A stretch of DNA of 46,530 nucleotides, counting the filler, from Sphacelaria rigidula (Eukaryota), in assembly GCA_964200075.2 (NCBI GenBank). It is 2 parts of 2 records of this genome, joined end to end, with 100 filler letters (N's around TTAATTAATTAA, not from the genome) between each part and the next. Parts side by side here need not be neighbours in the genome. Positions count along the whole stretch, not along the records: positions 23,320 to 46,530 come from CAXNAA020000276.1; 1 more part is not named here. One strand, given 5' to 3'. The position numbers and the translations under genes are program-made. Positions 11,161 through 44,027 of this stretch are shown here, piece after piece (positions within the stretch are counted from its first letter, which is position 1; the number at the start of each line of letters is the position of its first letter). Below the pieces are notes generated by a model, which was not told where the DNA came from, searched no databases, and was given only the letters and a program-made list of their open reading frames with translations.

Positions 11161-12707
11161 ATATATATAATTGTATTTTCTGCATGGCTTCGCGGTGAGA
11201 AACTAGAGCTACCGCAGGCCGTAACACCTCGACGCGAGATGAGTGCGTTGCGATCCAAACTACCATGGGCGTAATCGGACGCACAAGGCAAGTGAGCTTG
11301 AAACTCAAGTGTGCACCGGAAGACATTGAGTGAAGGCGGTTCTGCTAGGCTGTTATACTTACAACCGGATGGCTGGTAGACGTTGTCTCCAACCTGAGTC
11401 GATTTTACTGGGCGTATTGGTAGACTAGGTATTTGGGTAAACGCTACACCAATGTTACTTGCTCACGTGTAAGGTATTGTACATACCGTTCTGTTAATAC
11501 TAAAAAATGCGGGGAACGACTCGGAAGCGTCCCTGTTTTTTCCGTTCACGGCAGGAGATACTTCGGGGTAGGTTGGCTCGATGCAAGGGTGAAGGACACG
11601 CATTCTTGACGAGAACAACGTAATATCTTGTGTCCCACCTTTTGCGGCCTTGGCTAACATTGAACCAGATACGTGGGCAACAAATGGTTCGAAGGTCACG
11701 AACGGGGTACGATCGAAGTTCGCCTTGAGAGGTTCTTCGTTTGGGTGAAAAGTTTGCCCCAGCGGGAAAATTGGATCGAAAATACCAAAAGTTGATGAAA
11801 CTAAACCTATGCCAAGGGTGAGATTCGAAAAAGAGATCCCTGAAACCGAAGAGCCTACCCTTGACCAGAAAATAAAAGGCAGCTCGTATTATTCCCTGAT
11901 CATGATAGCGGGTGTGTTCACGTCCACGTGAGATCCAGTTTCCATCATTGTTTTTATTTGTTCTCACTCCTTACTCCTCCCCTTCCTGAGGACGAGTCCG
12001 AGGTCTCGAAGGATCAACCCATGTCCGCCCTGGTCATTGTACCCATGTGTTCTGCGATTAGCTGACGCGCTGATGACACAGTACAGAAACATCATGCTGA
12101 CGCTGCACACATCATGTGCCTCCTGCTTGAAAAATGTAGACAGACCAGAAGCGTTTTTATGGATCGTCTTGCGCCGACAGCTATATTCTACGTTCTTGTC
12201 TCTAACATAAAGTAGGACATCCCGGCTGCTGTTGGATAAAATGAGCACAAATGCTCCACAACAATATAGATGACTACGCAGTATTGGTTCCGGTGAACTA
12301 CAACATCGGTGGCACATTTTCCGGCTGCTGCTGTATGCAGTCGTCATTTCCGATGCTTCCTGGACCCATGTCTGAGTCATCGTCCCTCCCTCATATCTTT
12401 TACCTTTTCATTTTGCTCGAGCTTCCCCTCAGCAAGTATTTGTCGATCTGGAGTACGTCTGCCTTGTGACCATGACTCATCGTGACGGCTCGTGTATCGT
12501 GAGACAACCATTAATAATATTTAGCCATGTGCTCCTTGTACAAGGACTGATGCTGGAGTGCCCCTTACCAACCTGTCTTCAATTTGTGACGGTTGCCGAA
12601 ATCGTTGTTGTTGATATGTGAAGATCGGCAGTGCATTGTGTGTGCCCCATGAAGAAGCGCATTTGCCCGAAACTTCTTATGGAATCCGTTTGAAATCGTC
12701 TGTCCAG

Positions 12708-12866
12708 GGACCTGCAACAAAGACGCTAACCCAGCAGAAGGTGGTGATGATGGTAATCGGAAAGTTGTGGCGTGATGCATCTGAAGACGAAAGGAAGCCG
12801 TTCCACGAAGCCTCCGCGCGACTAAGAGCAGAGGGGGCAGACGAACTATTGGAGACCGTTCGAGCT
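12708..12866 (+). CDS. Exon encoding the C-terminal two helices of an HMG-box
   Basis: ccag| acceptor and |gtgagt donor flank 53 open codons. V..IGKLWRDASEDERKPFHEASARLR matches the HMG-box signature (LGE.WK.LS.EEK.PY...A). Confidence 0.7.
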
Positions 12867-15800
12867 GTGAGTGTACATTCGCCACCCCCGGCGTTACTCA
12901 TCTTCCGCTTCACCTTCGGAACGGCCGAGTAGGATAGCGTCAGGGTCGACCCTCTCAGGGTATGTGAACTGCCGACTGTGTTCATTGCCGTGGCTCTTCT
13001 CGGCATCGGTTGGTCTCGTCAACGTACGCACAATACCGTGTAGTTCGATGCAGCGAATCGGGGGGCTTGCGGGCAGAGTAGCGCAACAGACCGACATGCA
13101 GGCCCTCAACGTATGGTGGAGAACACATCCGTTGCATGTTCACTGCTAAGCATCTACCGTGGTCTGTCGTCCGACACACTGCACGTTCCTTCATTGCTAT
13201 GCGGGCTGTACACGTGAAGGCTTCTCTTTCTGCTCGCTATACCATACGGTTGTCTGTGTAGACAGCTAGGCACGCACAGTCCAGGTGCATGTCCATGGCA
13301 TTTTGTGCTGAGCATTGTGCCCGAAACCACAATCTGAGGAGTACCTGGGTCGCGTCGCGTCTTGATAAAGAGATTGACACCAGAAATTGTCTTCCTGAAA
13401 GATCCCCCAATATGTATTTTTAATTTTAGTTCCGATCAATCTAGTGCTCTGCCCAGCCGTTGGAAAGACAGGCTGCGTTTGGTTGACCCCGCCGCTCTTC
13501 CCCGTCGACCCCCCTCCATCGATCTCGAAACTGCCTCCTACGGTAGTGTGTGTTCACGACGTCGCTGTGTTTTAGTGTGGAACAAAAATGTTCAAGCTGC
13601 TACTTTCTGCGATGGTACATGTAGTTTCAGTGTGCGAGACGACACCTTCACGTCTAGCTGATTGGCAGACGTCATCGGACCCTTCCCTAACAGCGCCTAT
13701 CGGTTTTCTTCGTCACCACAGCTATCGACTGCAGATGTAGAAGTAGTCGCATCGGCCGGAACCGGCGGTGGGGGGGAGAGCGACATGGCAATTGCGCGCG
13801 CGAAACCGCCTGGTGGGGGGAAAGTGCGCAAGAAGAGTGGTCACATCACCGCAGCAGGTGGCGATGGTGAGATATGTGTGTAAGACCTTGGTCCGTTTGG
13901 AAAACAGAACGCATGCAGCAGGCGGAGTTGTCTTGTTGTGAACGCACGTGAGGGAAAGTACGTCAGAGGGAAAGGCTGCGGGCCGAGTGCTATCGAAATC
14001 GTATCCGTGGAACTTGCGTTATTCGCGTGGTTTTCATCCACGAACGGATACAGTGGCGATCGGAGCTTGCCACGGGAAAGTGCACGGGTTAGGACGGGAC
14101 CGAATGGTAAGGGACTGGGGGGGAATTCCAGCCCGGTCCCGTCGTTTCTTGAACGACGGGAAGCTGGTCCCGTCCGGCCCCATCACTTGATGGTAACGAA
14201 AAAACGTTCCAATAACGTCCTCACGGAAACATGTTCAATGTTTTCACGGATATTCCCGTGTAATCTAACATGAATTAGGGTATATCTTCACGAATGCAGG
14301 TGTAGGAATGTGCGGATATATCTTTGAACCCCGGTCTCTTCCATAGCTCATTCTTCACTTTCAGTGCACAGGAAGTGATGAAAGGTCACAATACCCGTAA
14401 CCGGGGCTTGTAACGGGACTTGGGGACGGGACGTCACCGTTTTCCCGTCGCAATTATGAGTCGATCCAACTGTTGTTGTCGGATGTTGTACAATACCTCG
14501 ATACCGGCGATTGTTATTTCGTGAACAAAAATGTTTTCATCGTGCTCCTCTTGGGGGGTTTACACGCACATTCCCATGAGGACGGGGCGGGACCGGAAAG
14601 TATCACGCGAACGTTTTCGTGAGGAAGGGACGGGAATTCCCGTCCCGTCCCATCTCATTAGTTTCCAAAAATTCCCACTCCGTCATTTTTTTTTGCGACG
14701 GGAGAACGATCCCGTCCCGTTCCGAATCCCCGTGATACGCCGTCATGGCGATGTGGGTTTCCTTTTGCCTGTTTTGGTGAAGCGATATAGCTTTTCGTTG
14801 CAGAAAATGGCATTATCTACGAGACAGCCTTTCCACCATGCGCTTGTGCATGAATGCCCTGGGTGTCGCTTGCTGCACGGCGATGTTGCCTATCTACCGC
14901 AGACCGTGACGTGAAGAGGTGGGCGATGGTACAAATACCCATGGTGCATTTTTGATCAGCCAAGGGATGTAGGAGATGTCGTTACTATCACGCCGCACTT
15001 TTGGCTATCCGCCTTTTTTCTCGTTGGGAACGGCTCAAATCGTGGTTGCGGCGGGCGCGCCCCAAGGCACGTGTTTGCTGCATGCAGCTTGTCCGTTTTG
15101 TACGTGTACTTCAGGAGGAAGCGGCATCGTTGGCGTAATGCTGTATAGCTCCAAACATATCTTCCACATCTAACACGTCCCCTACGACCATTTTATAAAT
15201 CGCCTTGCCCACGTTTTCTCCTTCGATAGTCAACACCCGCCATGCCTCCGCCACGTATACTCACCAGAACCAGCCAAAATGGAAGTACAAGAAAAGATTG
15301 AGATACCATGGGCATCATCCAAGAAACACATCACAGGGGACAAGGCGCCCTCTGCCTCTTCATCCGCTACGAATAAGGACCCTGCGCAAGCGACAGCGGC
15401 GAAACTTTCCCCATCGAAAGAGTTTCAATCCCCGCAACTCTCTAGCACAGTTACTCTGTCCAAGACGGCGATTTCGTCGTCGTCATCATCTGTACCCCCA
15501 AAGCACGCGTCATCCAAAGCCGGACCGAAGCCAAAGGGATCATCCACGGGGAAACACGAGTCTTCTGCAGCAAAATCTGCTGCTTCTGCGCCGTCCCTAG
15601 AGAAGAACAGTTCGTCAGCCGGCCAAGTGATTACTGCGATATCTCCTCGACAACAAGCCACGCCCGATATTGCTGCTACCGGAGGCGGGAAGTCCAAGAG
15701 TCACAGAAAAGGCTTGAGTGATGCCGGCAAAAGCAAGCGGAGTAGCGGTGCACACAAGGTAGCCGGTGGAGATGAAGATTCCGCAGCTAGTTCTGGACGG

Positions 15801-23140: not shown

Positions 23141-23193
23141 GGGGGTACTCATGATCATGCATGCCATAGTCATCAGAGCATTGACCTTGCATC
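23141..23193. repeat. Dispersed ~30-50-bp repeat, probable DNA-transposon terminus (other copies at 6310-6338 and 28765-28816)
   Basis: GACTATGGCATGCA(T/A)GATCATGAGTAC occurs three times (+, -, +). The 23.1-kb and 28.8-kb copies share a further ~20 bp. Confidence 0.7.
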
Positions 23194-23219
23194 CATACAA
23201 TACCCAGACGGAGCACGAC

Positions 23220-23319
23220 NNNNNNNNNNNNNNNNNNNNNNNNNNNNNNNNNNNNNNNNNNNNTTAATTAATTAANNNNNNNNNNNNNNNNNNNNNNNNN
23301 NNNNNNNNNNNNNNNNNNN
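23220..23319. other. Artificial assembly spacer N44-TTAATTAATTAA-N44
   Basis: Exactly 100 bp. The central 12-mer puts a stop codon in all six frames. Confidence 0.97.
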
Positions 23320-24222: not shown

Positions 24223-24649
24223 AGGGGTGCGAATCGCTCACAAAACATATAGGAAATTTCCCCCAGAAGTGTCCTGGCTCTTCCTGATGGACAAATCAAG
24301 CTAGCCACTCAGAAACAAAGGATCCATCCGGTCGGTTGCAAGAGAACCGTGGAAGGCCTTCTGCGCAGATCACACACTCTGCCGCAGATGCATTTCTCAT
24401 GGGCGTACTGGTGAATCATTTTGCAAGTAAATATTATTCCGATGCAGATACCGACTTTGGGGGTGACTACCGACAACGACAAATTCAAACAGAGAGTACA
24501 ACAACAGCAGTACAATGCAGTACGAAAGCCCTGTGGTACAGACACTACAGTGCAGTATTATCTCAACCACCCCCCCCAAGACACCCCCCNNNNNNNNNNT
24601 TGCCAAACCACTCACGGAAGCCACAAATAAGCCCCCCCCCCCCCCCCCC

Positions 24650-27357: not shown

Positions 27358-28046
27358 GTCCGCATGACAGGCTGCAACTGTGACAACGCCTTAATGCTCT
27401 TGAACGTTGACTACTAAATGAATAGACATATATCATTTCTTGACAACTATACGGATATTCAAGTTCAGATGCGGTCCTCTAAGCATGCGGTCCTCACAAT
27501 CATTACAGTAGTACCGTTTCATTCGTATCTTTCACGTAGATATCTTTATACGTGTACCCACATAAGCACCTACAGGATACTACAGTATGGAGTAGGCGTG
27601 TTGCCATGATTTGTCAATTCTAGATACCTCTAGCAGAGTAAGATACCTCTAGCAGAGTATTGAGGCTGCGTGAGCTGACAGATATCTCGTGTGCAAGAGT
27701 GCAGTTGATCTAAGCTAAAGAGTTGGTAAGGCTGCCGCGTCAGCAGTAGCAAGGTTGAATTGGATGATGCGATTTGATCTCACGTACGTGTAGAGGGTTT
27801 GGCTTTTTGTTCCAGGTTTGAGGATGCTTGAATTCGGTGACCTCTACCGCTCTTGCATTTACTCTCCTTTGTTTCCACAGCCTTCTGCATTCAAAGGAGG
27901 CTGGTCGATTTTGTTTGGCAAAGTGAAGAGCCCCAAACACCCTGTGTCATTTCGATCTTCTGCTGCAGAAGCAAGTGATCTAACCACCACGGTGCTGCCC
28001 TGACCCAAAACACTTGTCTCAAATCATTTCTTGGTCCCGCACGCAG

Positions 28047-31000
28047 GTGCTTGGATTGACGGTAGACTTTGCTCTTAAGCTGGGAGGATTTCCGAGCCCC
28101 CTCGGCATGCTCGCCGCCCTACCCGTTGCAGGCACCAGGCCGAATCTAAGGTGAGTAGAGATGACAAATTTTGATCCATGTTATCGGTGACATCCCTAGC
28201 TTCATCCGGTGTTGCGACATTTGCATGTGATAGCACTGAAATCGGATGAACGCCGGAAATAGTGAATGCTGGGGACTGGTACGATTGAGTATCCATTTTC
28301 ATCACCCCCCGACCCCCCTGGCGTCGGTTGGCGATGGCGCTATAAAAGCACGCCACTTACTACGTATGCTAGGCAACCAGGTTACCGTTTGTTTTGCGCG
28401 CTTGGGATTTTTTTGCGGTAACCATGATGGCAGTCGAGCTAGATCATGTTGTGCGGCGTGGGAGAACCTCAACTCCGCACGATGGGGATGATCGTACTAT
28501 GTAGTGTTTACATAGTGAGACACCCATGAGGTAGTGTATAAGACGTTGCTGTCTCTGGAAGTGGCGATATCAGATATTAAAGCAACTCAATTGGGGCTGT
28601 CATCTAAATGCAAGATAATCAGTAGGCTTCGGGCCGAGTAATCGTAGCAGGATACAACTCACCCTTCATGCGACCGGCCAAACACACCACGACGCTTCGC
28701 GCTTGGTGATTGAGCGCGAGCCTGGTCCGGCGAGAACCCGGCGTGCTCCGCTCCGGCTCTGAAGGGATGCGAGGTCAATGGTCTTATGACTATGGCATGC
28801 ATGATCATGAGTACACCCGACCCTGCTCTAATCGGTTCAAAAGCTATACGACACTTGACTCCTCGAGATACGACACTTGACTCCTCGAGATGCGTGTTGG
28901 ATGACTCGACGGCTGAGGTATTTTTTTGAACATAGGGCACATTTTGCCCCCGTGCCACTCCATCCTTGGCGCCATACACCGATCAAGTGGGTCGTGGGGT
29001 CCATATATATGTTGTATGGCCAGCTTGTGGAACTGAAATGGCCTGGAAAACTGCTTGGAAATCAATTGAGAATGTTCTTCGATATGTAAAAGTACTCGAC
29101 ATGCTTAGAATGCAAAGAGTGCCCAGCGAACAACAAAAGCGCAAAACTTTAGGCTCAAGCCCAACCAAACTTGAAATATGATACACGTGCCCCCTGCCCA
29201 TAATGCTCTCGTTTTTTCCTGGCGCGATCCAATTGGCAGCGCCGGAGCGTCCAAGCAGTTTGCCAACCTTTGCGGTATCTTTATGGCGTTCATGGCATGG
29301 CTGCTCCTCCTCTTGGACTATACGATCGCCGCTCAAGTCTTCCTGGTGAGAGTTTCGAATTCGGAGTCATGACTTTGAAAGATCTCGGCGGTCTTGTGTG
29401 CTTCTTTCTCGATGTCCTCCGTTTTAAGGAATAGCGTGCGTCTACTATCATGAGAGAGTGGTTTCAATCTTCCTCGAACATTGTTCAGCCATCGAACGAG
29501 CCAATACCTGAAGCGCGCTTAAGACAGGTGCACCAACCCCCCCTCCCTTTCTCCGCGTAAGAACATGATCCTGCATGGGGGTTGCGCGCTTTGCAGTCAA
29601 CGTCGCTTCCATTTCCTGTACAATTTCACGACAGCAACGCGCGATGGGTCGTTGAGCATACCTCCTCATCGTCCATCGCTCTGTTCAACATGAATCCATG
29701 CACGTGTATGTTTAAACGATCAGATCGGACTGGCGGTGGCTACGGCCCTCCAAGGGTTTATCAACTTCTGCCTGGGTTGCTACATCTTCAAGTACCTACT
29801 ACGGTGGGGACTCGTCCGCGGCTCGGTGTACCGCATGCACATCGGCACGAGGTGATCGCGACATGTTTGTATTCTTACCGTGGCCGTTTTCATTAGTTTG
29901 TCATTGGGTGTGTTTTGAACTGCACGCTGCAAAAGCTCGCAGGGCAGACCAGATACGATTTGTAGTGAAGTGAAAGAGAGGAAGGCATGTGACACGCCCT
30001 CAAAACCGGCACGAAGGAGGACACATTTCATCACGCAAAACATCACGTCATGAGGACGACAAAGACAGGAAGAACACGTGATAGAGGTTTTGGGGGCTGG
30101 CGGGGTGTTCGGTGCATCCAACGTTCAATGCTCGCGCAGAAGGTATTGCTGTTCAAAACCTTGATCAGAAATGCGGTCCAGTGGACATCGAACAGCCGCG
30201 GGTGCACGACTCCTCCCTTGTCTTGGGACTTTTTATGGACAGTATATGTTGCTGTTTTGGCTGAGGAAAACAAGTGAGTCCAAAATGCTTGCCACTGACG
30301 ACCAATCGGGATGTGCCCTGCCACAGGAGCAACACCATGTATGCTTGGGAGAAAGTCAACATCCGCACCGGGAAGGGAGCTGCGCCGGAACCCGTCACGT
30401 ATCCCACCAAGGTCAGGAATAGACCTATGTCTCCAAGGCACGAAGAATTATTTCAAGTAGAATTTTTCGACTTGAACCCGTTTGTGCGCTACGTTGTCTT
30501 CAGGGGATCGTTTCCGGCCATGGATCTCTCTGGCTTCGGATGAAAAAAAAAACTGAAAGAATATGTGCGAGACCGAACTTTGAAGTGCTCATACTTTACT
30601 TGCGCCCGTCAATCCTTCGTGGGAGTCTTGCACTACCGTGCAACTTCCACGTGGGGTGTGGGTATATCCCGATAGGAATTCATCCGCGAAGACGTCCATT
30701 TGGGATGTGAATGTTTATATGGGGTGATCATCCGAAAAATCCATCTGTAATATTCTTCTGGGAGATTCAAGATGAACAAAAGGGTATCCCAGACGCATCT
30801 GGTACTGGAAATTAATATCCCAGATTTACGTCTACACCACTGATGTGTGAAATTAATATCCCAGATTTACGTCTACACCACTGATAGTGGTTACATAATG
30901 ATGCTGACCTGTGTAATCCGCTCCTCTCCTACTTCGTGCGGAAATGTGCGAGGGCTGTGCCTTTTCGTCCCCGGATTCATCGATTTGTGGACGAGGTTCA

Positions 31001-31732
31001 TGACGACGTTATAATGCGTGAGAGGACCGCGTGCTTAGGGGATCGCATCGGATATTAACCACCCCTATGGTTAGGGTTAGGTTCAAGTTAGTGCTGGGGT
31101 TGGGGTCAAGGTCGTGGTCCCTGCAGGGACTGGCCCGATTAAATTTGAAAAACGTCGATCCTGAGGTGTTTTGAACACCGATGTGGCCCCCTAAGCACGC
31201 GGTCCTCTCACGCATTACAACGTTCTCGTCGCAAGTTAGTGGTCACCATCGGCTCATCGTCGCCGCCATCAACAACGAACGACAACCCGCTAATCGAAAG
31301 ACTTATTCTAACAAGCCGCGTCCTACTTGTTCAGACACTGGCAGGGTTGACGCTCCATCGGAGTACCCGTACACATAAATGTCGCGCGAGCTGCGGTGCC
31401 TCGGTGAAAGCATGCCCTACAGCACCCTAGTTTTTTCCGTCGAAGAAATGTCGCCACTTTCGGCTTGATGGCCAGTCTGAACTCTGATAATGGTGCGGCG
31501 TGTAGTTTTGCTTTTTTAGGATTGCGAACGCGTAAGAACGTAATTTATCAAACATGGATGAGTTATTGTTGCCGGGCTGCAGGAGTGCCGATCAACTTCT
31601 CGGTAGTGATTTACTAGGCCAATTCCAGGGGAAAGAACTCTGGCGGCAGGAGGAGTGCTTGCGGAGATAAACATCGCAACTTTATATGATTTGCTACAGT
31701 CGCGAATAGTCAGCGAGTTGTTGCTATGTTGT

Positions 31733-31765
<33 letters not shown>

Positions 31766-34700
31766 CCGTACTTGCGATGATGCTTTCGCACGTGCATTAC
31801 ACGTTGGCAACTGCATAAAAACGTGGGGCGCTGCGATAGTCGTCTCAAGGTAATCCTATTGACATCTAGGTAGATGCTGTTGGACTACGGATTCGTCCGA
31901 GGAAATCGGGGGGGGGAGCGTAGAAGTCGGTCGAAGATAAAAGACAGGCAGAACAGCTGATGGCATGTTTGACGCAAGACGCGCATTTTGCGTGCACCCG
32001 AAAAGCCGACAACACTCTGTCGCGGAGGCCTGGTGCGACTCGTGTATTCAGTGCGAATGAGCGAGGTGGTGTGTCTTTAATACGGTAGTAGACATATCAA
32101 GTTGCATGAGACGTCTGGTAAGATAACTACAGGTTTCTCGAACACTGCATGCTGTATTCGTGTTCATGGTCCCTGTGGTCTCATGGCCTCGGTATCTTCG
32201 TGCCGACACTACAGAATGAACTAGTCCTGTCGAAGTGAGGTGCGAGCCGGAGATATTTTCCTGAACCCAGTCCTCTCAAATACAAGGCAAAGATAGATAG
32301 ACTTGGTGTCAACATTCTTCAACCTTCAATGCATTGAATCAAACGCAGTGGTCTTACCCAACACAATCATCCCGCGACGCCATGTTACAGTTCTGATTAG
32401 CTTTCATGGACACTAGGGGATAGGATACTTCGTACTCGATAAAACCTGCACTACATCCAATGTAACTTGTTTGTTGTTCCTCACCCGTGGACCACCTGTG
32501 GAAGGAATGCAGTATATGCTTGGTTTAGTGCACCAGGCGAATTGCCGGGAGTGATTGATACGTCACCGTATGTTGAAGCTAAATCATCTATCTCTCATCC
32601 ATCGTGTATATTGACTCCGGTCTGCTGGCGTCGTGTGTGATCGGGGACAACGCAGGGCGTACCGCGCAATCCGACCGATCTCAGGGCTAAGCGTGGGAGG
32701 GCCGACGACAAGTGGGAGCGTTTCCACCCCATCAAGTGTGAGTGTCTCAAACTAACTGATTGCTTCGGTTCTGTCATGGACAAATACGAATGGCGTCGAA
32801 GCAAGCTTCGTTTCCGTTCAGCGCGTGACATCAATTGATGGAATATTTGCACATTTTCCAAAGGCTAGAGTGCCCACCGGGGCTTCGATTCACCACATGG
32901 CAATACTTTGTCCTGTTCTGCATGAGAGGACCGCGTGCTTGGGAGACCGCATCGTAGTTCGAAACACCTCATGATCGACATTTTTCAAAACCAATCGGGC
33001 GAGTTCCTGCAGGGACCCACTCCCCTGACCCAAGCACTAACACTAACACTAACCCTGACACTGGGGATATTCCAACCCTTACCACAGGCGTGTTCAAATT
33101 CCGATGCGATCCTCTAAAAGCGCGGCCCTACCTCACGCATTACAATGTGACGACGCTGGCCAGGGTTCCTTTCCGTGCATAGGTTAGAACACAGGAGTTC
33201 ATCCTCCTGTGGTTGGATGTCGCAAGCGGTGTTAACTGTAACTCTTGACCAACCAGCGATTATTAGCGGTAGTCGGCATCCCTGGGAATCCGCATGCTTG
33301 ACTCGCCACCTACGATCATCCCACGATGTTGCCTGAGCGTGCACGTCCTGTGGCTGCTTCAAATCATCAACAGCTGAGCACATCAACCATTGCAGATGTT
33401 TGTTTTGCAGCAGCTCTAGCACAAACAGACACAACGCAACACGCGCACCCCGGAATATGTGCTCGCCCAGCTCTCCATCCGTGCTGTCGATTTCTTTTTG
33501 ACCGCCATGTTCCTCGTCCCGCTGCATTGCGCTCTTGTCTCGCCGCTGAGGTAGACCTCCATATGGCCTACTTCATGATTCCCCTTTCCGTGACTGGGCT
33601 TGGCCTCCCCTGGAAGCTTCTCTGGGTAACGGCGGGGACCCCAGAAGTCGTGTGGAAGGTATGCAAGTATCCCAGGCGATATTCCGAGAATGTGTAGCTG
33701 ACGACAACCTCCACATTGTGTTGACGGCATGAGCCTAAAACAAACACGAATACGATATTTACTGAACAAATGACGAGAGTTTTCCGCTATGTTGCTGTCT
33801 CCAGAATCAGAACTAAAGCGAATCACGATATCATAACAACTATTTCTTCCTTCTTGGTTTGTCTCGCCAATTTCAACGCCGTTGGGAAGTCGTTGTTTTG
33901 CATTCGCTACTGATGGTTCGGCAGCGACGAGAGGATAAGATGTGGAACGAAGAACGGCAACTGTTTGTAAGCCTTGCAGCAGCGCTCTCATCGTTTGAAG
34001 TTGACGTCGCCGTTCCCCTCCGAAAATCTCGTGGTTGCAGACGCTGGCCTACTTGGGGGCAGTTTTGCAGGGCATCCTCATAGTCTTACTCGTGGCCAAG
34101 TGCATCCTGTACCCTTCGAAGGTATACCTGTAACACGTGAAAACCTAGGTGTGAGCACCATACGCCCTTTGCAGCTGAAGAGACCTGGGGTTGCAAGTAA
34201 GAATTGCGGAAACCGTAACCCTCGTATTTGCGCTGCTAGGCTTGCCGACAGTACAATGAAATGCGCCAAACGAAGTTGCCTCCGTTTGCAGGGTGAGCTC
34301 AGGTGCCAATAAGATTGGTGTATGTGCTACATGTAATTGTTCATGACTACCGAGAGTGTTGCTTTGTGAAATCGTACATCATTTCCGCATACGTTTCCTT
34401 CGTGGAAGTCGGTGCACGTGCGAACCCTTTGAGCTATCCGGTTTCCCACCAACACGGACTATACAACGCCCCCGTGTCTTTTTGAGACGCTTGGGAGGTT
34501 ATGTGGTTTTGTCACCGCCCCACCGCCGATAGATGCGCTTCACAAGTACAAAGGGATGTGAATGTGACATACGTATCTTCCGGTGGATGTAATCGCCCCT
34601 TATCTTTCGCTCCGTTTCGTGTTGTTCAGCGCGCCAACTGCCGCCCCAGTCGATTTTGCTGGGTCCCTCTAGTCCAATCCCCTTACGAGAGAGATGTAGG

Positions 34701-37700
34701 CGGTTGCATGTTGTGTCGAAAGCCTCGAGGTCCAGCTTTATCTTGGGGATATTCGGTGGTTGAAGTAAATCGACGTAGTGCAAACGCATTTCAAATTTTG
34801 GTGACTTCGCCAATATTTCCGCGCTGACACAAGAAAAAAAAACTGAATTCCGTTGCAGATTCGGAAGGAGTTCAACCACCCGCTGCACCGTAGCACTTTT
34901 GCGCTGCCGTTCCTGATCTTCGTCGTCCTAGCACGAATCAGTGCCAACTGGACCGACCCCGTCAGCACCATCACTCTGTCGAGGGTGCTCTTCTGGATGG
35001 GGACCATTCCCCTGACAATGCTCACCTTGTTTGCGATCGCCAGGCAAGCTCTGAATAAATTGATATCGCGCAATGTTTTCTCGGCGGTACTTTCGTGGGG
35101 TTGAAGGTTGTCGTTGTTAGGGTTCCTAAGGATCGAGAGGAACAGGATGGACCTGGACGTAATAATAGATGCGGCGGTATCCTCAGCCATGGTGCTCACG
35201 TGAAATCTTTTATTTGGCTGATTTTGGGTCGTTATTGGCGCCAGTCAATCTGCTCATTTGCCGACAACTGAAATAGAGCGTTACGTGAAACTGATTCTCG
35301 TAACACACGTTGAATTGTTTATGAAATGGTTTGGCCTAACATGTTTGCCGCTCTGTCACTGGTAATAGGGAAAGCACGATTTTCACGTCGGGACGATGAG
35401 CTGACTGTTTGCACTTGCAGATCATTATTTTTTCTATTGGGTAATTCAAATATGCGCAGCTGGGTTGCCTCGCCTGTTGACCCGGAGCACATCCAGCCCA
35501 GCTGGATGCTCATGCCTGTCTCGAACTTGATGGGAGCTGCCGCTGCTTGGTCGGTCAACCCGGAGTACTACGAGTGGGGATGGTTCCTCTTTGGCACCGG
35601 CATTCTACTCTGGCTGGCCCTCTGGCCGATCACCTTCCGCAAGGTAGATGGTGATAGTGATGATCGCCTGGTGTTGTAGCGATCCATGCGCCCATGATTA
35701 AGATCGGCTGATACGTAAGCCAGTTTGACTCGCGCACTACAAATTCACTCTCGTCCTTGGTCCTCGCAAACGACTTTCGGTATGGAACGGGACACACGCT
35801 GTGAATATTGGAGAACCCCTCCTCTGTGTAGAACTTGGGACAACACAACTGTGGACTCGAATTTCGGATTCGGTAACAATGACCCAAGATGTGAAAATCA
35901 CTTTCCGCAACGCACAGCTTCGAGCGTGAAGAGTGTTCATGACCGTCGCGGATTTTCAAGTCGATAAGGCGTTCACACGACCCACGGCAAGCGGTCGGCC
36001 ACCAGTGGAGCCCTGTAATAGCTTTCAGTATTCATCTGGGACCATGTATGTGCATGGGATATTTATCTTGGATATCCACCAGAAATACTCCTCTGGGGCA
36101 TGAAAATGCGTGTGGCATGTCCACCTGGGCTACCGAAACCGTGTGGAATATCGCATCCGTCGGCGATCTCAATCGGATTTTTTAATTATCCGAATAAGCA
36201 TCTTTTTGCGACATGATAATCTATCTAGGACAAGTGACCCTGACCGTGACCCTGACTCAGAAAAGATTACTTTCTTGGGTCGGACATATCCTAAATGGAT
36301 GGCAGTTGGATATTCCAGACGGATACCCCACACGGGTGCCCACGTGAGAAGACATGTACAGATGAAAGTCCGGATACCCATAACTCAGATGGATATTCGA
36401 GTCATTCTAGGTTAGGGGGGGGGGGGGTATTTGGTTGCACGAAGAAAAGGCTGATAAGTGTGTCAGATGAACTGCAACACTCGCGATGCGCTTGTATTTG
36501 GTTCAAAACGGTGTCAATCGGTATGAATAACAACAAGCTCGTTCAAGCAACCGTTTCTGATTTCAGCGGCGATTTGCCTTGGAATTTCGTGCAAGAAGTG
36601 GCCCAAAATTCTCCCCCCCCCTATTGTAGGATGACTCATTCATATCCCAGGTGTATGCACAGCAATGCAAGACCATGCGAATGGCCGGCGACCAACGGTT
36701 GGGCGCGACACCAGATAATCATCGCAACAAACCCTCAGCCAAAAGCCACAAGTGTAGCATGCTGTACATCGCTATCGTTGTCATTCGTTGCGGTATCAAA
36801 CTCAAGGATATGGTCACAATCCCTCGCCGCATCAGAAACTGATGAGTAATGATCACGCCCCGAGGCATTACACCAATACTTCTAGGGAGGGTTGAGGATT
36901 GACTCCAGGGAAATCTGTTTACCGACTTTCGGCTGGGACGATAATCCCTCCGTTCGCATACATCCGGCACGGTGAGGCGAGCCCTGCGTAATCGTGCAGC
37001 CTTCGTCTATGATATCTATCTGGGGTATTTATGTCCTCAAGGGATGTCTATTTTTCAAATGGATGACCATATTTCAAATGTGTAGTAATCTCTCAGATGG
37101 ACATTCGAGGGGGATGCAATATATATATATATATATAATGGATATCCCATGGAGGTTGCGCGATACTTCGAGACAACAGCTGGAAGGGGGTGATCGACAA
37201 GAGTGCCAACATCCTGCGGTTACCATCGATGCCGGGTCGAGATGTCGAACACCATCCGACCTAGGTACGAGATAGGTTAGCTCGTCAGCGTAGAGGAAAA
37301 ATCGGACCGACCTTCTTGTAACTGACCAACCCCAGCTACACCATTCCTTTATCTCGCGAACCAACATGAACTACACTGCTGCACTTCAAGACTGGGCATT
37401 TTGGTCTATGATGGGTAAAGCAGTATGCATGCATTTTCCTGTTTCATTCCCACTGTGCCGCTCAGGCTATCTCGGACCACCACAGCGACGTCCGAACTCG
37501 GAACCTCTTCGCCATCTGGGTGGCACCCCCGGCTATGGCGATGCTGGCCTACCAACACCTGGAAAGTGTGCCAACCTTCGACTCTTTGCAGCGGGTGCTA
37601 TACTGTGAGTCATTGTAGAGTTCGTGGAGAGGTTGTCCGTGCTGAAGATATGATCAAGATTATTGTTTGACTTTTGGCGCTGTGTATGCACGAGGATATC

Positions 37701-40700
37701 TTCTCTCACCGGGCGATGTACCATTGACCATTGCAGACGAAGACATGAAGTGGAACGGATGGACTCCTGCGATCCAACCTGAATTTGTGTCAAAACGTCA
37801 ACAATGGTGAAAACCTGTGCATCGATTTCGAGTGTATGTACAAAGCTCAAAATTGTTGCATCGCCAGCTTGCAGTCGGAAGTCGTATTCGTGCTTGAAGT
37901 CCATCGTCTCCCGGTGGTGGCACATGCTGTATGCTTCGCCGTCTGGCAGACCCGGCCCTGTCGGTAGCCGCAGCCTTGGGGGTCCTCGCCTGGCCACTGA
38001 ATTTCTTCCTGGAGGGAGGGTTTAATATGTCCAACTGGGCGTTCGCATTCCCCCTTGACGCTCTCGCGGCCGCGTCTGTACTGGCTTACGACGGGTCCCG
38101 TCACGAAGCCATAAAGGTGCGATAGAACAACAGACAAAGGTTGTCAAAAATATTTTGTCTCTTCTTGTAGTGGTATGGGCTACTCGTGCATGACTATGCC
38201 CGAAGATCGGCACAGGGGCACACGTCTGAGGATGCGTATATCTGCTGGGCAATCTACGGCGTTCACGCACATGTTCACCTTTGTAATGCGTGAGAGGACC
38301 GCGTGCTTAGAGGATCGCATCGGAATTTGAACATCCTTATGGTCAGGGTTAGGGTTAGGGTTATGGTCAGGGGCGTAGTACCTGCAGGGACTGGCCCGAT
38401 TGGTTTCGAAAAACGTCGATCCTGAGGTGTTTTAAACTACGCCGCGGTCCTCTAAGCACGCGGTCCTCTCACGCATTACACCTTTCCCACGTTGACACCC
38501 AACGCCCCTATCACCACCTCCTTGAACAATATTGCTCATTTTACTTCATTGCATTCTACATGTATCTGTGGAACATCCATGAACCCCGACAGGTAATCTA
38601 CGTGATCGTGCTGACATCAGCCTGCTTAGTTAACGCCGTCAATCTCCTCGCCACGCTTGGTGCGCTGAAGGCCAGGAGCATTTTCACTCCATCGCCGAGG
38701 TGGTCCCCGCTGATCTTTGCAGAGATGATCCACGAGGCAAGTACTGTAAACCACCGGGGGCGTTCATTAAATCAGTGAAATACGTAAGGGCGGGGGAGAG
38801 GGCGGGTGTTATTTGCCTCGGGTTAGGGTTGACGCTAAAGCGGCGATCATTTCGGGGCTTGGAGGTTGTACCATGAACCTCAGGTATGTTTCATGTCTCC
38901 CAGAGCATTCACACAGCGCGTTTTTTGGCCGCGTGCTTTTAGGACCCCCTCGCTAACAGAAGCGTAAGGCACCTTTAGTCGCTGGAGCGCCAGGCTCAGG
39001 ATCCCCAAGTCGGGCCTGACCGCGGTACAGCGCTGTTGCAACGGACACCGAGGAGTAAGCTTTGTTTCAGAGTCTAGAAATCCAAAGAGAGCGTTACAAG
39101 AACCTCTACTTCATGCTGGGCAATTATCTGTTTCATTGGGTCTGGAGGTTGCCCGAACACATCCCGAGCTTAACGGCTGACCGAAAATATCTAGATACGT
39201 ATCACATCAAACCATTGCCCACGTGGGAACGAAAGGCTGTGTAGGTCCCACCGGAAGCAGGTTTCAGAGGATGGCTATAGTGCAATCTTCGTTCTTCTGC
39301 CGAAAATGAGGGAGACGATTATCTACATTGCGCGGGTTGGAGAACTCTAGTTAGTCCCAGTAACCCCATGGGCAAACGATCTCAGGAGGGGGATTCCGTT
39401 TATCCTTCGCTGCATTAGCCTATCACGGCTTGCACGTTCGGCGACATAATTTCACTTCATGGCGTGATATTCAGCGTTTCCCGTCCAGTTGGATAATGGA
39501 CGTAATTGTCGAGATCACCAACAAGGAGATTGTGAGCCTCAAACAGGCTTGCCTGCGTCATGCTTAGGGCTGAGGACTTCCCTGATTCATGTCGTGCTGG
39601 TGACCGCCCTCTTGATCTTATTCAGCAAAAGACTACAATTACAGCCCGCGTTGATCACATCACAGTCGGGGAAGACTCCATCGCAAGATCATCATGTTCA
39701 TCCTTGCCAACACTCATTCATCATCACGCTGCGGGTTTCCAGCGGTCTTGCTTGTTAAACAGTGTACGGTGGTGTCACAAGTTCGTGTTCAGGTATCCCA
39801 CTTTGCAGAGATTGCGAACCCCCACCATGTTGCATGAGCATGAGCAGTGCTGTGTGTTGGATAATCGTTCGCCGTTCACAGGCGTTCCGTGAGGCCGTTC
39901 CCAAGCTCGAGAAGCTTGCAGCGGCCACGAAGCCGGGTTTGACCGAGGTCTCCACTGTGCGCACGCTCGCTATTGCCTGGTCTGCCGTCAGCAAGGCGCA
40001 TGCTGTAAACACGAACGGCAAGGAGCGAGTGATATTCCCCGAGCTGGAGTCTTTTTTCCCGGGACAGGTAATTAACGCTCGTCGATCGGGCAGTTACTTG
40101 GTCGACGATCAAATGAGAGGGTCGAGTGTGCCACGTTCGGTTGAGGCGAGACTTGCGGCGCGCACTCTGAGGTTTCGTGCGAAGTTTGCCTTCGCTGTGC
40201 ACGATTCTCAGTTCTGGATGGCCGGGAGTGGGGGAAACAGGTTGTCTTGGGTTGCTTGCTCAGTAACACAACATGCAGGGTCGCCGCGCCGCTTCTTGTG
40301 TTTCGAGCGAGCTGGCTCAGAGCGCCCACTTTATAACCCAAGTACCCACAACTCGATCCTTATTGTGGAATACCCGTTCCTAAACGCGTTGGTATGCGTC
40401 CTCAAAACCGTCTTTCCATGAAGGTGATAACGTGAAGCACGGCGGTTTCCTCTCTCGCTCAGCACTGACACTATCGTGCAACCTCCATCTGGGACGTGGA
40501 ATCCCCGGAGGGACACCCATCTGAGATATCCATAATGCGCGAGGGAACCGCGTGCTTAGAGGACCGCATCGTGGTTCGAAAGAATTCAGGATCGATGTTT
40601 TAAAACCCAATCGGGTCAGTCCCTGCACAGTCCCTGCAGGGACCACGCCCTTGATCCTACCCCAATACTAACCCTAACCCTAACCCTGACCATAGGGATG

Positions 40701-43700
40701 CTCGAATTCCGATGCGTTCCTCTAAGCAAGCGGTCCTTTCAAGCAGTACAGTATCACAATCACAGCACATACATACCCAGATGGAAAATCAGATCCGTCT
40801 GGAATAGCGGTCTGAGATAGGGATATGGACATGCACCAGGGATGCCTCAAGTGTAGATCACAGGTGGACATCACAGCTAAATATTCATGTCCCAGATGGA
40901 CGTCCGTGTCCACGATGAATGTCCAGATCGTAGATGTTCATGACACTTTAGTTGGACATTGTACGATTACAGAAGGACTCCTTCGATGACAGCACGCGAC
41001 CGCTGCTACCAGTTGTGTGACGTCTTTTCCACGCTTTTTCTTAGCTTTCGCGTTTCGAGATCATCGTTCTTCTGTGAGTTTCCGTAAAACATTCCCTCGT
41101 GGCTGATACAGACAGAGGAGGCGGTCAAGAAACGCGAGGAACGCGAGGAGCTCATGTCGTCGGTGCAGATATCGCTCAACGTCCTTATGGATCGAGAGGG
41201 GAGGAGGTAAGTTCCTCACCATAACCCGTCTAACTGAAAAGCAGAGAAAATAGCACTCACGGTGATCACCGCAGATGTGGACGTAAGACCTACGTGTCGT
41301 GCAAGGCTTCTGCACGATAGTTCGGGCGCAGATTTCCAGCCCATTTCTCATGCTTCAAATGATTTATGTTGGGCCGGCGCGAATGCAGCGGCGGTGAGTA
41401 CGAGGACGAGTCCGTCCGTGCCGACGTACTTGGGGGACTGAGAGCTGATCTTCAAGACTTTGGAGCAGAACTCATTAGCGCCCTGGATGAAGAAGAGCTG
41501 GCGTTTGCCGCCCCCGTCGCCCGCAAGGTAGGCTGTCTCGTTTTGCATGCAGCAATGGCGATGATGCTCAGTAACTAATGGCTTCAGATATGTGTGTGTG
41601 AAATTTCATGAATTTGATTGTTGTTTCGCCGACGTTTCGGTCGTAAAGGCGTCACGCCATGGTGTCTGTAATGCGTGAGAGGACCGCGTGCTTAGAGGAC
41701 CGCGCCGTAGTTCAAAACACCTCAGGGTCGATGTTTTTCATAACCAATTGGGCCAGTTCCTGCAGGTACCACGCCCCTGACCATAACCCCAACATTAACC
41801 CTAACCCTAACCCTAACCATGGGGATGTTCAAATTCCGATGCGGTCCTCCAAGCACGCGGTCCTCTCACGCATTACAGTGTCAACGCGCGACAGCAACGA
41901 GCGCCTCGCATGGGCAAAGTTAGGGCTACCGACCATATTGATGTCGCTGTAATGCGTAAGAGGACCGCGTGCTTAGGGGACCGCATCGTAGTTCGGAACA
42001 CCTCAGGATCGACGCGTTTCAAAAGCAATCGGGTCAGTCCCTGCAAGGACCACGCCCCTGACCCTAACCCTACACTCACCATAGGGATGTTCAAGTTTCG
42101 ATGGGTCCTCTGAGTACGCGGTCCTCTCACGCAGTACAGTTACTGTTGTCATGGTCCGAAAGCAATCATATGAATGCCTACGTCTGGTTTAGCGCCTGTG
42201 ACCCGTCAGGTCGTCACCTTCATTCCGTTCAATGACCAGAAGGGTGTGTCAAGCGGGTAGACAGCAGCACCAGAGCCATCCGCGATCGCCACGTGAACAC
42301 ATACCAGCGATGCGCCTGGATGCGGAGGGAAGGGAAAGCATGACGCAGCGAGGATGCTTCTCGAAGACCTTACCTCGGATACCTCTCGATGACTCCGGTG
42401 TTGGCGGTTGGGTTACGGCTGTGTTTCACCGTGGACATGTCATCTGATGCTAGGGGAACGACATCGTCTGCCGGACTCGCAACTGTCTTACACGAGAAGG
42501 GGTTGTTACACTGGTATACGTGTTGTGCGGACACGTGATGATGCTGGAAATAGAAAGAAGCGGGCGCGCCCTGCATCGCTTTACCCTTTTGCGGTGATTA
42601 TTTTCGTTTCTTCTCACCTCGCGCTGGCCGTTGTCCTACACATCAATACTTGTACCTTGCTCGTTTTTGCGTGGAACCTTGTGCAGTACATACCCATCAG
42701 CACGAGCAAGGCCTTGGTGAGGAAGGTCTGGGACACCACCTCTAATTCGGACATGTCGGATCTCCTGGGATGGGTCATGATGACGCTCCGCATCCGTGGC
42801 CAGAGGGTGAGCGGTGCACGTGTATGTCGAAGTCGGATCATTATTATATCGCCGAGTTTCAATTGAATGTTGAGGCAATAATCACGTCCTGACCACCTCC
42901 GCGTGTATGGATGCAGCCTGATCTTACAACAGCCATGAGAAGAACCATAGACCTTTGTAAGCAAGTCGTTTCTTCATGTCGATTTACGTACGTTATTGCT
43001 GCAAGTTTGCTGATCTGACTCCCTGATGTCGAACATTCACTGATCCTCTACGCGCACACCTGTATTCACGAGATGAAAACAAATACGTACTCAAGACCAG
43101 ACAGAAACACTCGATGAACGAACTCGAAACCCGAATATGCGGCAGGATAGTAACAGAAGAAAATGGCAGGAGTAAAAGTGAAATGTTAGGGGGAACAAGT
43201 AGACCTCCCGACTATTGTTTAAAACAAGCACGGCCGCACCGTTATGCGTGGCCTGCGATGGGCAGGCCGTGAAACACGGCTGCGACTTTGCTACGGGAGG
43301 CGCACACCACTTGGCCACGTTCGTTTTCACACTGTTTTATACAGGAGCGAGGTACGCACAGGAGTTCAGCTTGTGGCAAAAGGAAAAAATAACGAGAAGG
43401 AGAAACAAATTTCATCATACTCTGGAACGATATTTGGATGGTGGTCACTCCCCGAACGAAACCGCTACGAGGAGGGGTAGCCAATCTTAGTCAAACACGT
43501 AGGGAGTATTTCCCTATTCCTCTTGCCCCTGCCTGCTGCACATGCTGCCACGAGCACACATTGAAATGTGGCCCTTATTGAGGGGGCAGAGCATGTGACA
43601 GGTGTAGATTTCCGAGCCAGAAGCGAATGCGGCCTGTTGTTCTCAACCTGGTCCCTCTATGAACAGTGTCCCCAATCGTAAAGTGAACCCGTCTACAGCT

Positions 43701-44027
43701 CCAGATGCCCCCACGCTTCTTTTCATTTGGTCGGAAGAAAATCTGGACGATTATCACGGTTCTCATTTCAGGGATATTTGGGTGTTGAGTACCCGGAGTG
43801 ATTGGAAACTTTTGACAAGCGCCTTCATGCCTTCCCACGCCCAATACGCCACCCAAACATGTCAGTCTCGGTTCCTGAAAGCGTGGGTCTGGGCGATGCC
43901 GGAACGTGCGCAGCAGCTAGGGCTGATGGTTTATCGCGTCGTCGATGATATCACCTGGGTCGAGGTGGCGCGCGACCTCCCCGAAATCGTCCCCCGTGGG
44001 CTCCCCGGGCACAGCCGCTACTACTAG
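28047..44027 (+). CDS. 17-exon gene, at least 736 aa: DUF4395-like N-terminal membrane domain + SLAC1/TDT-family anion channel + degenerate hemerythrin-like C-terminal domain (5' end unresolved)
   Basis: Exons 28047-28150, 29240-29345, 29724-29851, 30327-30411, 32656-32737, 33555-33658, 34041-34121, 34859-35043, 35460-35643, 37466-37604, 37950-38116, 38593-38736, 39882-40067, 41112-41206, 41389-41527, 42687-42806, 43866-44027. Total 2211 nt; every intron phase matches, there is no internal stop, and it ends GHSRYY*. Motifs: VDFALK..SPLG..KQFA..FCLGC; IRKEFNHP, PSWMLMPVSN, IWVAPP, FNMSNWAFAFPL; IHEAFR, KERVIFPEL, LDEEE. Confidence 0.9.
30650..30885. repeat. Intronic repeat family rich in CCATCTGGG/CCCAGATGG motifs (also ~36030-36400, ~37010-37150, ~40485-40930); this copy ends in a 41-bp-period duplication
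   Basis: atctggga/cccagat/gatatcc motifs recur in four introns. gaaattaatatcccagatttacgtctacaccactgat occurs at 30808 and 30849. Confidence 0.6.
31010..31219. mobile_element. TG...CA MITE with telomere-like core, copy A
   Basis: TIR taatgcgtgagaggaccgcgtgcttag, core ggttagggttagg, TSD ACGT. Confidence 0.9.
31741..31765. repeat. (AT)n microsatellite
   Basis: 25-bp pure AT run preceded by (AC)n. Confidence 0.9.
32914..33144. mobile_element. TG...CA MITE, copy B (diverged)
   Basis: tgagaggaccgcgtgctt...cactaacactaacactaaccctga...ctcacgcattaca. Confidence 0.8.
38282..38480. mobile_element. TG...CA MITE, copy C
   Basis: Perfect TIR tgtaatgcgtgagaggaccgcgtgcttagagga, core (ttaggg)n, TSD CCTT. 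Confidence 0.95.
40531..40750. mobile_element. TG...CA MITE, copy D, nested in a CCATCTGGG-type repeat
   Basis: Diverged TIRs, core ccctaaccctaaccctga, TSD (a/g)tatc. Confidence 0.85.
41667..41877. mobile_element. TG...CA MITE, copy E
   Basis: Near-perfect TIR, (ccctaa)3 core, TSD GTGTC. Confidence 0.95.
41948..42138. mobile_element. TG...CA MITE, copy F
   Basis: TIR tgtaatgcgtaagaggaccgcgtgcttag / cgcggtcctctcacgcagtaca, flanks gtcgc/gttac. Confidence 0.85.

Follow-up and report, generated by a model that had tools for sequence, protein, structure and literature searches.

A probable SLAC1/TDT-type anion channel gene in Sphacelaria rigidula, a putative sensor-degenerate member of a multidomain family of brown algae and diatoms

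The stretch of Sphacelaria rigidula DNA analyzed here (46,530 nucleotides, from assembly GCA_964200075.2; hereafter the window) carries a 17-exon gene at positions 28047-44027 on the + strand. Its product joins a DUF4395-type membrane region, a SLAC1/TDT channel domain, and a hemerythrin-related C-terminal domain. This is probably a nuclear gene for one subunit of a SLAC1/TDT-type anion channel, and specifically a sensor-degenerate paralogue within a putative thiol- and iron-regulated family of brown algae and diatoms. A preliminary description of the window had proposed a three-module channel. The joining of the three parts in one gene stands, but the family plan has four modules, and the DUF4395 domain of the window copy is partial.

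The gene model is genuine and matches, exon for exon, a predicted protein of 716 amino acids that NCBI lists as 'unnamed protein product [Sphacelaria rigidula]' (here P0001). Searching the window with P0001 and its relatives (tblastn) gave 17 colinear + strand blocks, and the 67-residue translation of one exon is 100% identical to P0001. When all GT or GC donors and AG acceptors near these matches were tried in a scripted splice-site search, a single combination of 17 + strand exons was found whose translation equals P0001 letter for letter. With exon 1 moved back from the ATG at 28107 to the 28047 acceptor, the protein gains 20 residues, and scripted splicing then gives the 736 codons of the preliminary description, followed by one terminal stop and with no in-frame stop between modules. 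There are 14 GT-AG introns and two GC-AG introns (after exons 8 and 12), with lengths from 182 to 2244 bases. The GC donors are at 35044-35045 and 38737-38738, and the resulting junctions (…FAIA/SWVA… and …MIHE/AFRE…) agree with most relatives. The gene models of two relatives, P0012 from Ascophyllum and P0002, the other Sphacelaria copy, diverge precisely at these junctions, which suggests mis-splicing in those predictions.

It is important to note that P0001 is a computational prediction on the same genome and thus not independent proof of splicing. On sequence comparison, the independent support for the exon model is orthology with P0004 of Ascophyllum, which matches 17 of 17 exons (tblastn, E 4.7e-4 to 1.9e-27) and is colinear across the junctions. 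The majority of relatives also align without gaps across exon junctions. AlphaFold2, given 66 family sequences, models the protein as one body with confidence (mean predicted local distance difference test [pLDDT] score 92.6 and predicted template modeling [pTM] score 0.90 over all 716 residues).

Residues 150-457 of P0001 match the SLAC1 family PF03595 at E 4.2e-35 (121.9 bits; cut-off 27.9), covering profile positions 2-331 of 331. The domain starts in exon 6 (33555-33658) and continues through exons 7 (34041-34121), 8 (34859-35043, with the first GC donor), 9 (35460-35643, where the open reading frame [ORF] alone matches PF03595 at E 2e-8), 10 (37466-37604), and 11 (37950-38116), with its last helix in exon 12 (38593-38736). 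Foldseek with the whole model gave 24 matches at E <= 1e-3, and among those listed all are TehA, SLAC1, or SLAH structures, with template modeling (TM) scores (target) of 0.73-0.91. TehA and SLAH1 chains reach 0.85-0.91, with root-mean-square deviations (rmsd) of 2.1-2.7 Å over about 320 columns. The channel domain is thus modeled with the ten-helix TehA/SLAC1 fold, and the sequence itself matches solved structures of SLAH1 (E 1.7e-18) and TehA (E 2.9e-16). The motif WAFAFP in exon 11 (38036-38053) aligns with WAFSFG of TehA in the HMMER alignment, with its second Phe on position 262 of chain 3m71. This is the correspondence with Haemophilus influenzae TehA F262 that had been proposed. Of 66 family sequences, 65 have this pore Phe, and we take AtSLAC1 F450 to be its plant equivalent.

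Two of the closest known systems share the channel domain. The plant S-type channels SLAC1, SLAH1, and SLAH3 (PDB 7wnq, 7en0, 9m7r, 9m7s) share PF03595, the ten-helix fold (TM [target] 0.73-0.88), and the pore Phe, and the family profile matches SLAH3 at E 1.4e-52; identity to the window protein is only 16-24%. Regulation of these channels acts through phosphorylation of their disordered tails, whereas the Sphacelaria protein has folded modules instead (DUF4395 with a membrane CxxC and a hemerythrin-like domain, with glutaredoxin in complete relatives). Haemophilus influenzae TehA (3m71 and others) is the best structural match (TM [target] 0.89-0.91, rmsd 2.1-2.5 Å). However, TehA is a bare channel domain, and the Sphacelaria protein misses the TehA equivalog cut-off.

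Ahead of the channel, P0001 matches DUF4395 (PF14340) at E 1.8e-10 (41.7 bits; cut-off 24.5), with the domain incomplete and covering only profile positions 61-130 of 130. Exon 1 (28047-28150, with annotated coding sequence from the ATG at 28107 and homology starting at the 28047 acceptor) encodes the end of helix 2 and a loop. Exon 2 (29240-29345) encodes the GASKQFA motif (residues 17-23; 29244-29264) and helix 3, and exon 3 (29724-29851) encodes helix 4 with the CxxC motif FCLGC (residues 65-69; 29766-29780). A conserved linker follows in exons 4 (30327-30411) and 5 (32656-32737), the latter with the motif NPTDLRAK. FCxGC and PKQFA motifs are common to bacteria and algae, and in the 66-sequence alignment the two CxxC cysteines are present in 63/63 and 62/63 non-gap rows. 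The DUF4395 domain model of P0174 (pLDDT 90.2) has four membrane helices. Helices 3 and 4 are kept in P0001, and the 736-residue frame adds part of helix 2. Two retained helices, being an even number, are topologically possible. A VKOR- or DsbB-like thiol oxidoreductase fold was considered for this domain and set aside, neither being among the Foldseek matches listed, with 0 PDB matches at E <= 1e-3.

When bacterial and archaeal genomes were scanned by motif, 10 DUF4395 loci emerged, hosted by Chloroflexota, Actinomycetota, Anaerolineaceae, and Thermoanaerobaculia, and 9 of the 10 ORFs match PF14340 strongly (E 1e-29 to 1e-34). The stand-alone proteins (Chloroflexota, Actinomycetota; L001-L009) are ~145-185 amino acids long and unfused. 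L001-L008 share 31-34% identity with the algal domain, and in L009 the match is confined to about 60 residues. Given that two algal-like motifs served to select the loci and that five share one synteny, the sample is small and biased. Within 3.5 kb, 0/10 loci have a rhodanese gene as neighbor and 0/10 a SLAC1/TehA gene, so that the bacterial DUF4395-rhodanese link of the preliminary description finds no support in this sample, as against 1/10 with an adjacent thioredoxin. That one is L009 (5770-6613), where thioredoxin lies 8 bases downstream of DUF4395 and a Cys/Met pyridoxal phosphate (PLP) enzyme upstream. Two other arrangements were seen: two DUF4395 genes in tandem at L003 (5368-6522), and, at L007 (9818-11551), a fusion of a luciferase-like monooxygenase with a hemerythrin domain, 3.4 kb from DUF4395.

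Judged by domain matches, the architecture of the family is one of four modules rather than three, and its plan opens with glutaredoxin, or sometimes Rdx. Named members come from the brown algae Ascophyllum, Scytosiphon, Ectocarpus, Laminaria, and Hapterophycus and from the diatoms Epithemia and Fistulifera, and all four Pfam domains (glutaredoxin, DUF4395, SLAC1, and hemerythrin) occur in relatives from Ascophyllum, Scytosiphon, Ectocarpus, Epithemia, and Fistulifera. An exhaustive phmmer search of 1.84 billion representatives with P0012 found 2566 proteins at E <= 1e-3, of which 127 reach E <= 1e-30. Among the 59 of the best 150 representatives that were scanned with Pfam (top matches of a four-domain query, biased to fused forms, and many of them fragments), glutaredoxin, DUF4395, SLAC1, and hemerythrin occur together in 21, the first three in 12, the last three in 10, SLAC1 with hemerythrin in eight, DUF4395 with SLAC1 in four, SLAC1 alone in two, and a form with Rdx instead of glutaredoxin in two. 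Overall, glutaredoxin is found in 33 of the 59, DUF4395 with SLAC1 in 49, and SLAC1 with hemerythrin in 40. In P0068 and P0076, Rdx (SelW/SelT-like, PF10262), with CxxC or CxxS, stands in the place of glutaredoxin before DUF4395 and is a second, independent thioredoxin-fold partner. The models of P0004 (Ascophyllum), P0016, and P0018 (Laminaria) begin in the middle of glutaredoxin, without the active-site motif; either gene prediction missed the first exon in all three, or no more than a remnant of glutaredoxin survives in these lineages.

This recurrent thioredoxin-fold partner (glutaredoxin, Rdx, or a thioredoxin neighbor) is the best clue from sequence that the CxxC may be a redox site. The earlier suggestion of redox regulation is strengthened by these partners and by the near-invariant CxxC cysteines, whereas gating itself is only inferred.

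An alignment-based homologue search returned 12 proteins, all brown-algal, and embedding-neighbor searches re-found only DUF4395 and hemerythrin clusters. In a quick maximum-likelihood tree, P0001 and P0002 are sister to P0004 (Shimodaira-Hasegawa-like approximate likelihood ratio test [SH-aLRT] 100) inside a brown-algal clade (SH-aLRT 100). We treat these proteins as a putative family of anion channels that brown algae and diatoms share, in which the window copy belongs to a paralogue lineage of P0001, P0002, and P0004. As the preliminary description had allowed, annotated homologues exist. Esi0050_0061 of Ectocarpus siliculosus (P0017) is in the same family and brown-algal clade and is 51% identical to the window protein; unlike the window copy, it has glutaredoxin and an intact ligand set (see below), and its gene model lacks part of DUF4395. 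Its annotation, 'glutaredoxin/malate transporter fusion protein', omits DUF4395 and hemerythrin. Beyond its annotation, this gene is known from a single copper-stress transcriptome study, which reports it as specifically copper-induced in Ectocarpus and whose authors propose export of copper-organic acid adducts (PMC4108028). Full-text literature searches, with most subscription journals outside their reach, found no study of this architecture and no functionally characterized member.

The region after the channel was modeled by AlphaFold2 as four long helices (476-498, 503-541, 547-572, and 584-624, with pLDDT mostly >90), followed by five short ones. It starts in exon 12, which also has the second GC donor. 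Helices 1-2 of the presumed hemerythrin-like bundle are encoded by exon 13 (39882-40067), helix 3 by exon 14 (41112-41206), and helix 4 by exon 15 (41389-41527). A C-terminal helical subdomain follows in exon 16 (42687-42806), and exon 17 (43866-44027) carries a well-conserved tail (WAMPERAQQ ... VPRGLPG) and the stop codon. PF01814 matches four of five relatives scanned (P0004, P0009, P0012, and P0013, E 5e-8 to 1e-11), and the language-model neighbors of the P0012 C-terminus are hemerythrin clusters in 30 of 30 cases (top score 0.94). The window domain is considered homologous to hemerythrin/HHE because it is ~60% identical to P0012.

The alignment columns hold the pattern H, HxxxE, H, HxxxE, which we take to be the metal ligands of a hemerythrin-like domain, with the expected residue in 60, 57, 53, 55, 54, and 58 of 66 sequences (H, H, E, H, H, and E, respectively). 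The corresponding residues of P0001 fall one or two to each long helix. His482 (38731-38733) and E612 (41492-41494) are retained, and the other four of the six are replaced: N526 (40008-40010), K530 (40020-40022), R553 (41133-41135), and A608 (41480-41482). P0002 has the same set and P0004 has lost three, so that the losses predate the split of the two Sphacelaria copies; even so, P0001 and P0002 agree at 229 of 256 C-terminal sites. Mapping of the ligands onto a solved hemerythrin by sequence was attempted with the P0013 C-terminus, which matched only a collagen adhesin repeat (E 0.0015, spurious). The A2 profile searched against PDB gave only SLAC1, TehA, and glutaredoxin chains, and no di-iron hemerythrin, among the best 60 of 124 matches.

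Hemerythrin-like (HHE, PF01814) sensor domains are found in FBXL5, BTS/HRZ, and YtfE/RIC. Complete algal relatives resemble these in matching PF01814 (E down to 1e-11) and in keeping H, HxxxE, H, HxxxE on four helices. In contrast, the window copy keeps two of six ligand positions, has no Pfam match, and bears an extra conserved helical tail of ~90 residues behind the domain. The sensing of O2, nitric oxide (NO), or metals that the preliminary description had suggested is therefore unlikely for the window protein, given the four lost ligands and the missing Pfam match.

The 5' end of the window copy requires separate consideration. The acceptor at 28047 (context ...ttcttggtcccgcacgcag/G) is a good one, and the frame that starts there has no start codon. 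Residues 60-93 of P0002 correspond to 28047-28148 at 100% identity. A family-built N-terminal profile matches the ORF at 27984-28151 (E 4.3e-10), only from about profile position 50, and the in-frame peptide upstream of 28047 is unrelated to the family. Complete relatives have ~200 residues ahead of the point at which the window gene starts. Searching the 46.5-kb window by tblastn with five N-termini did not find exons for glutaredoxin or the N-terminal half of DUF4395, and profile hidden Markov models (HMMs) of both against all six-frame window ORFs gave nothing above noise (best glutaredoxin E 2.6). A decayed remnant of DUF4395 helix 1 upstream of 28047 was also sought and rejected (local alignment score 17, as against 16.7 +/- 3.4 for shuffles; 870 of 2000 shuffles reach 17). 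Three runs of N, read here as assembly gaps, occur 3.4-4.8 kb ahead of exon 1, at 23220-23263, 23276-23319, and 24590-24599. The exons for glutaredoxin and the first half of DUF4395 are either unassembled or were lost by truncation of the window copy. Among 716 sites, 19 lineage-specific changes fall on the window copy and 31 on P0002 (p = 0.12), and thus the window copy is not decaying faster than its paralogue and shows no rate acceleration.

How such a protein might work can be outlined from the family plan. From N to C terminus, the plan would comprise a cytosolic glutaredoxin (sometimes Rdx), a four-helix membrane DUF4395 with the CxxC at the end of helix 4, the conserved linker, the ten-helix channel with its pore Phe, a cytosolic four-helix hemerythrin-like domain, and a small helical subdomain. 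Because the four helices (as seen in the P0174 model) follow a cytosolic glutaredoxin, the CxxC is expected on the cytosolic side. Glutathione/glutaredoxin status would set the thiol-disulfide state of the membrane CxxC, and the di-iron site of the C-terminal bundle would report iron, O2, or NO. Both sensors, packed against the channel, may bias its opening, such that anion flux would track the cellular redox state. In the lineage of P0001, P0002, and P0004 the sensors appear to be decaying, while the channel domain persists together with the CxxC and the C-terminal fold. On these sequence features, the window copy is read as a channel or channel-modulating subunit that keeps the thiol site and would no longer bind iron. 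Its substrate could be chloride, nitrate, a halide, a sulfur oxyanion, or a dicarboxylate.

Several observations count against a regulated anion channel subunit. PF01814 gives no match to P0001 or P0002 at E <= 0.1, so that of the domains expected in order from profile searches, DUF4395 and SLAC1 were matched and hemerythrin was not. No hemerythrin structure was listed in the whole-chain Foldseek search, and the ligand assignment comes from the general pattern of hemerythrin-like domains and column conservation, not from alignment to a solved di-iron site. The DUF4395 domain model has no PDB match at E <= 1e-3 (best Foldseek E 0.56, TM <= 0.27), and with no solved structural relative the role of this domain is a guess. 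The NCBIfam cut-offs for TehA and TDT are missed widely (NF008032, 87.1 versus 342 bits; TIGR00816, 100 versus 237.25 bits), making the protein a distant relative rather than a TehA orthologue, and TehA function is not transferable to it. By tblastn and profile HMMs, the window contains no start-to-stop model that matches the family plan. The bias of the 59 scanned representatives toward fused forms also belongs here.

The same architecture could serve export. Members of the TDT family include Ssu1 (sulfite efflux) and Mae1 (malate), and the extra modules might process a substrate (e.g., reduce or thiolate selenite, tellurite, arsenate, or copper-glutathione), with the TDT domain expelling the product. 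Such an exporter would suit the best NCBIfam models (TDT and TehA), the selenoprotein-type Rdx that replaces glutaredoxin in 2/59 representatives, the thioredoxin and Cys/Met PLP enzyme adjoining the L009 DUF4395 gene, and the Ectocarpus gene, in view of both its annotation as a glutaredoxin/malate transporter fusion and its copper induction with the proposed adduct export (PMC4108028). We nevertheless consider it unlikely, given that plant S-type channels match in sequence and fold as strongly as TehA does, that the channel-type pore Phe is kept in 65/66 members, that our results gave no sign of catalysis, and that a hemerythrin-like sensor suits regulation more than substrate processing. That the three modules are separate neighboring genes, wrongly joined across open frames, is hardly credible. 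P0001 is, it is true, merely a computational model on the same assembly, but the same module order occurs in single predicted proteins of at least five brown-algal genera and two diatoms (and in 49/59 representatives), the linker and junction regions are conserved, no in-frame stop separates the modules, and the model folds as one body (pTM 0.90).

Whether the window copy is functional is a different question, as it might be a young pseudogene, i.e., a truncated duplicate of a complete paralogue. The 46.5 kb hold no exon for glutaredoxin or for the first ~50 positions of the N-terminal profile, exon 1 begins at an acceptor rather than a start codon, four of six ligand positions are replaced, and the introns contain six copies of a dispersed repeat. 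All the same, 17/17 exons are open with intact splice sites, the copy has fewer changes than its paralogue (19 versus 31), and the ligand losses predate the Sphacelaria split, yet most C-terminal sites have stayed identical between P0001 and P0002 since then. The gaps at 23220-23319 and 24590-24599 could conceal 5' exons. On balance we regard a pseudogene as quite improbable, and retain the sensor-degenerate channel subunit as the preferred reading.

A more far-reaching version of that reading, which we put forward as a long shot, makes the family a redox-, iron-, or NO-gated anion valve whose SLAC1-type pore is opened by oxidation of the CxxC, under glutaredoxin control, and of the di-iron domain. 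On this view, degenerate paralogues would join mixed trimers as silent or modulating subunits, the part that SLAH1 plays for SLAH3; solved structures include such mixed SLAH1/SLAH3 assemblies (9m7s, 9m7w). In kelps, the valve might perhaps provide a route for iodide efflux, which is reported to be strong on oxidative stress (PMC3697951).

Outside the coding exons, the window has a few further features. A dispersed repeat ~220 bases long, which encloses a short microsatellite and is probably a small non-autonomous transposon, has six intronic copies (31001-31225, 32909-33148, 38281-38486, 40533-40756, 41666-41883, and 41939-42140), none overlapping exons, and partial copies upstream of the gene at 23141-23217 and 27445-27510. 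Adjacent ORFs on the - strand at 7563-9567 weakly match reverse transcriptase (RVT_1, E 2e-3) and endonuclease (Exo_endo_phos, E 8e-3) profiles, suggesting a degenerate LINE-like retroelement. A neighboring gene may have an exon in the + strand ORF at 12615-12929, which has a weak HMG_box match (E 5e-4, under the Pfam cut-off). A Pfam scan covering 107 of 159 long ORFs that lie outside the gene gave only these three weak matches, and nothing in it bears on the 5' end.

If the proposed regulation is correct, hard-wired thiol and iron sensors would couple anion flux to cell state in another way than in the kinase-regulated plant channels, and a sensor-bearing channel would be conserved from brown algae to diatoms, i.e., in ecologically dominant algae. 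The family would also offer a first functional clue to DUF4395, a membrane domain that bacteria and algae share and that is marked by a conserved CxxC. We know of no identified transporter for the halide release of kelps under oxidative stress or for copper-stress responses, and this family offers candidates for both. The window copy itself would be an example of sensor decay in a paralogue in which the channel and the fold persist.

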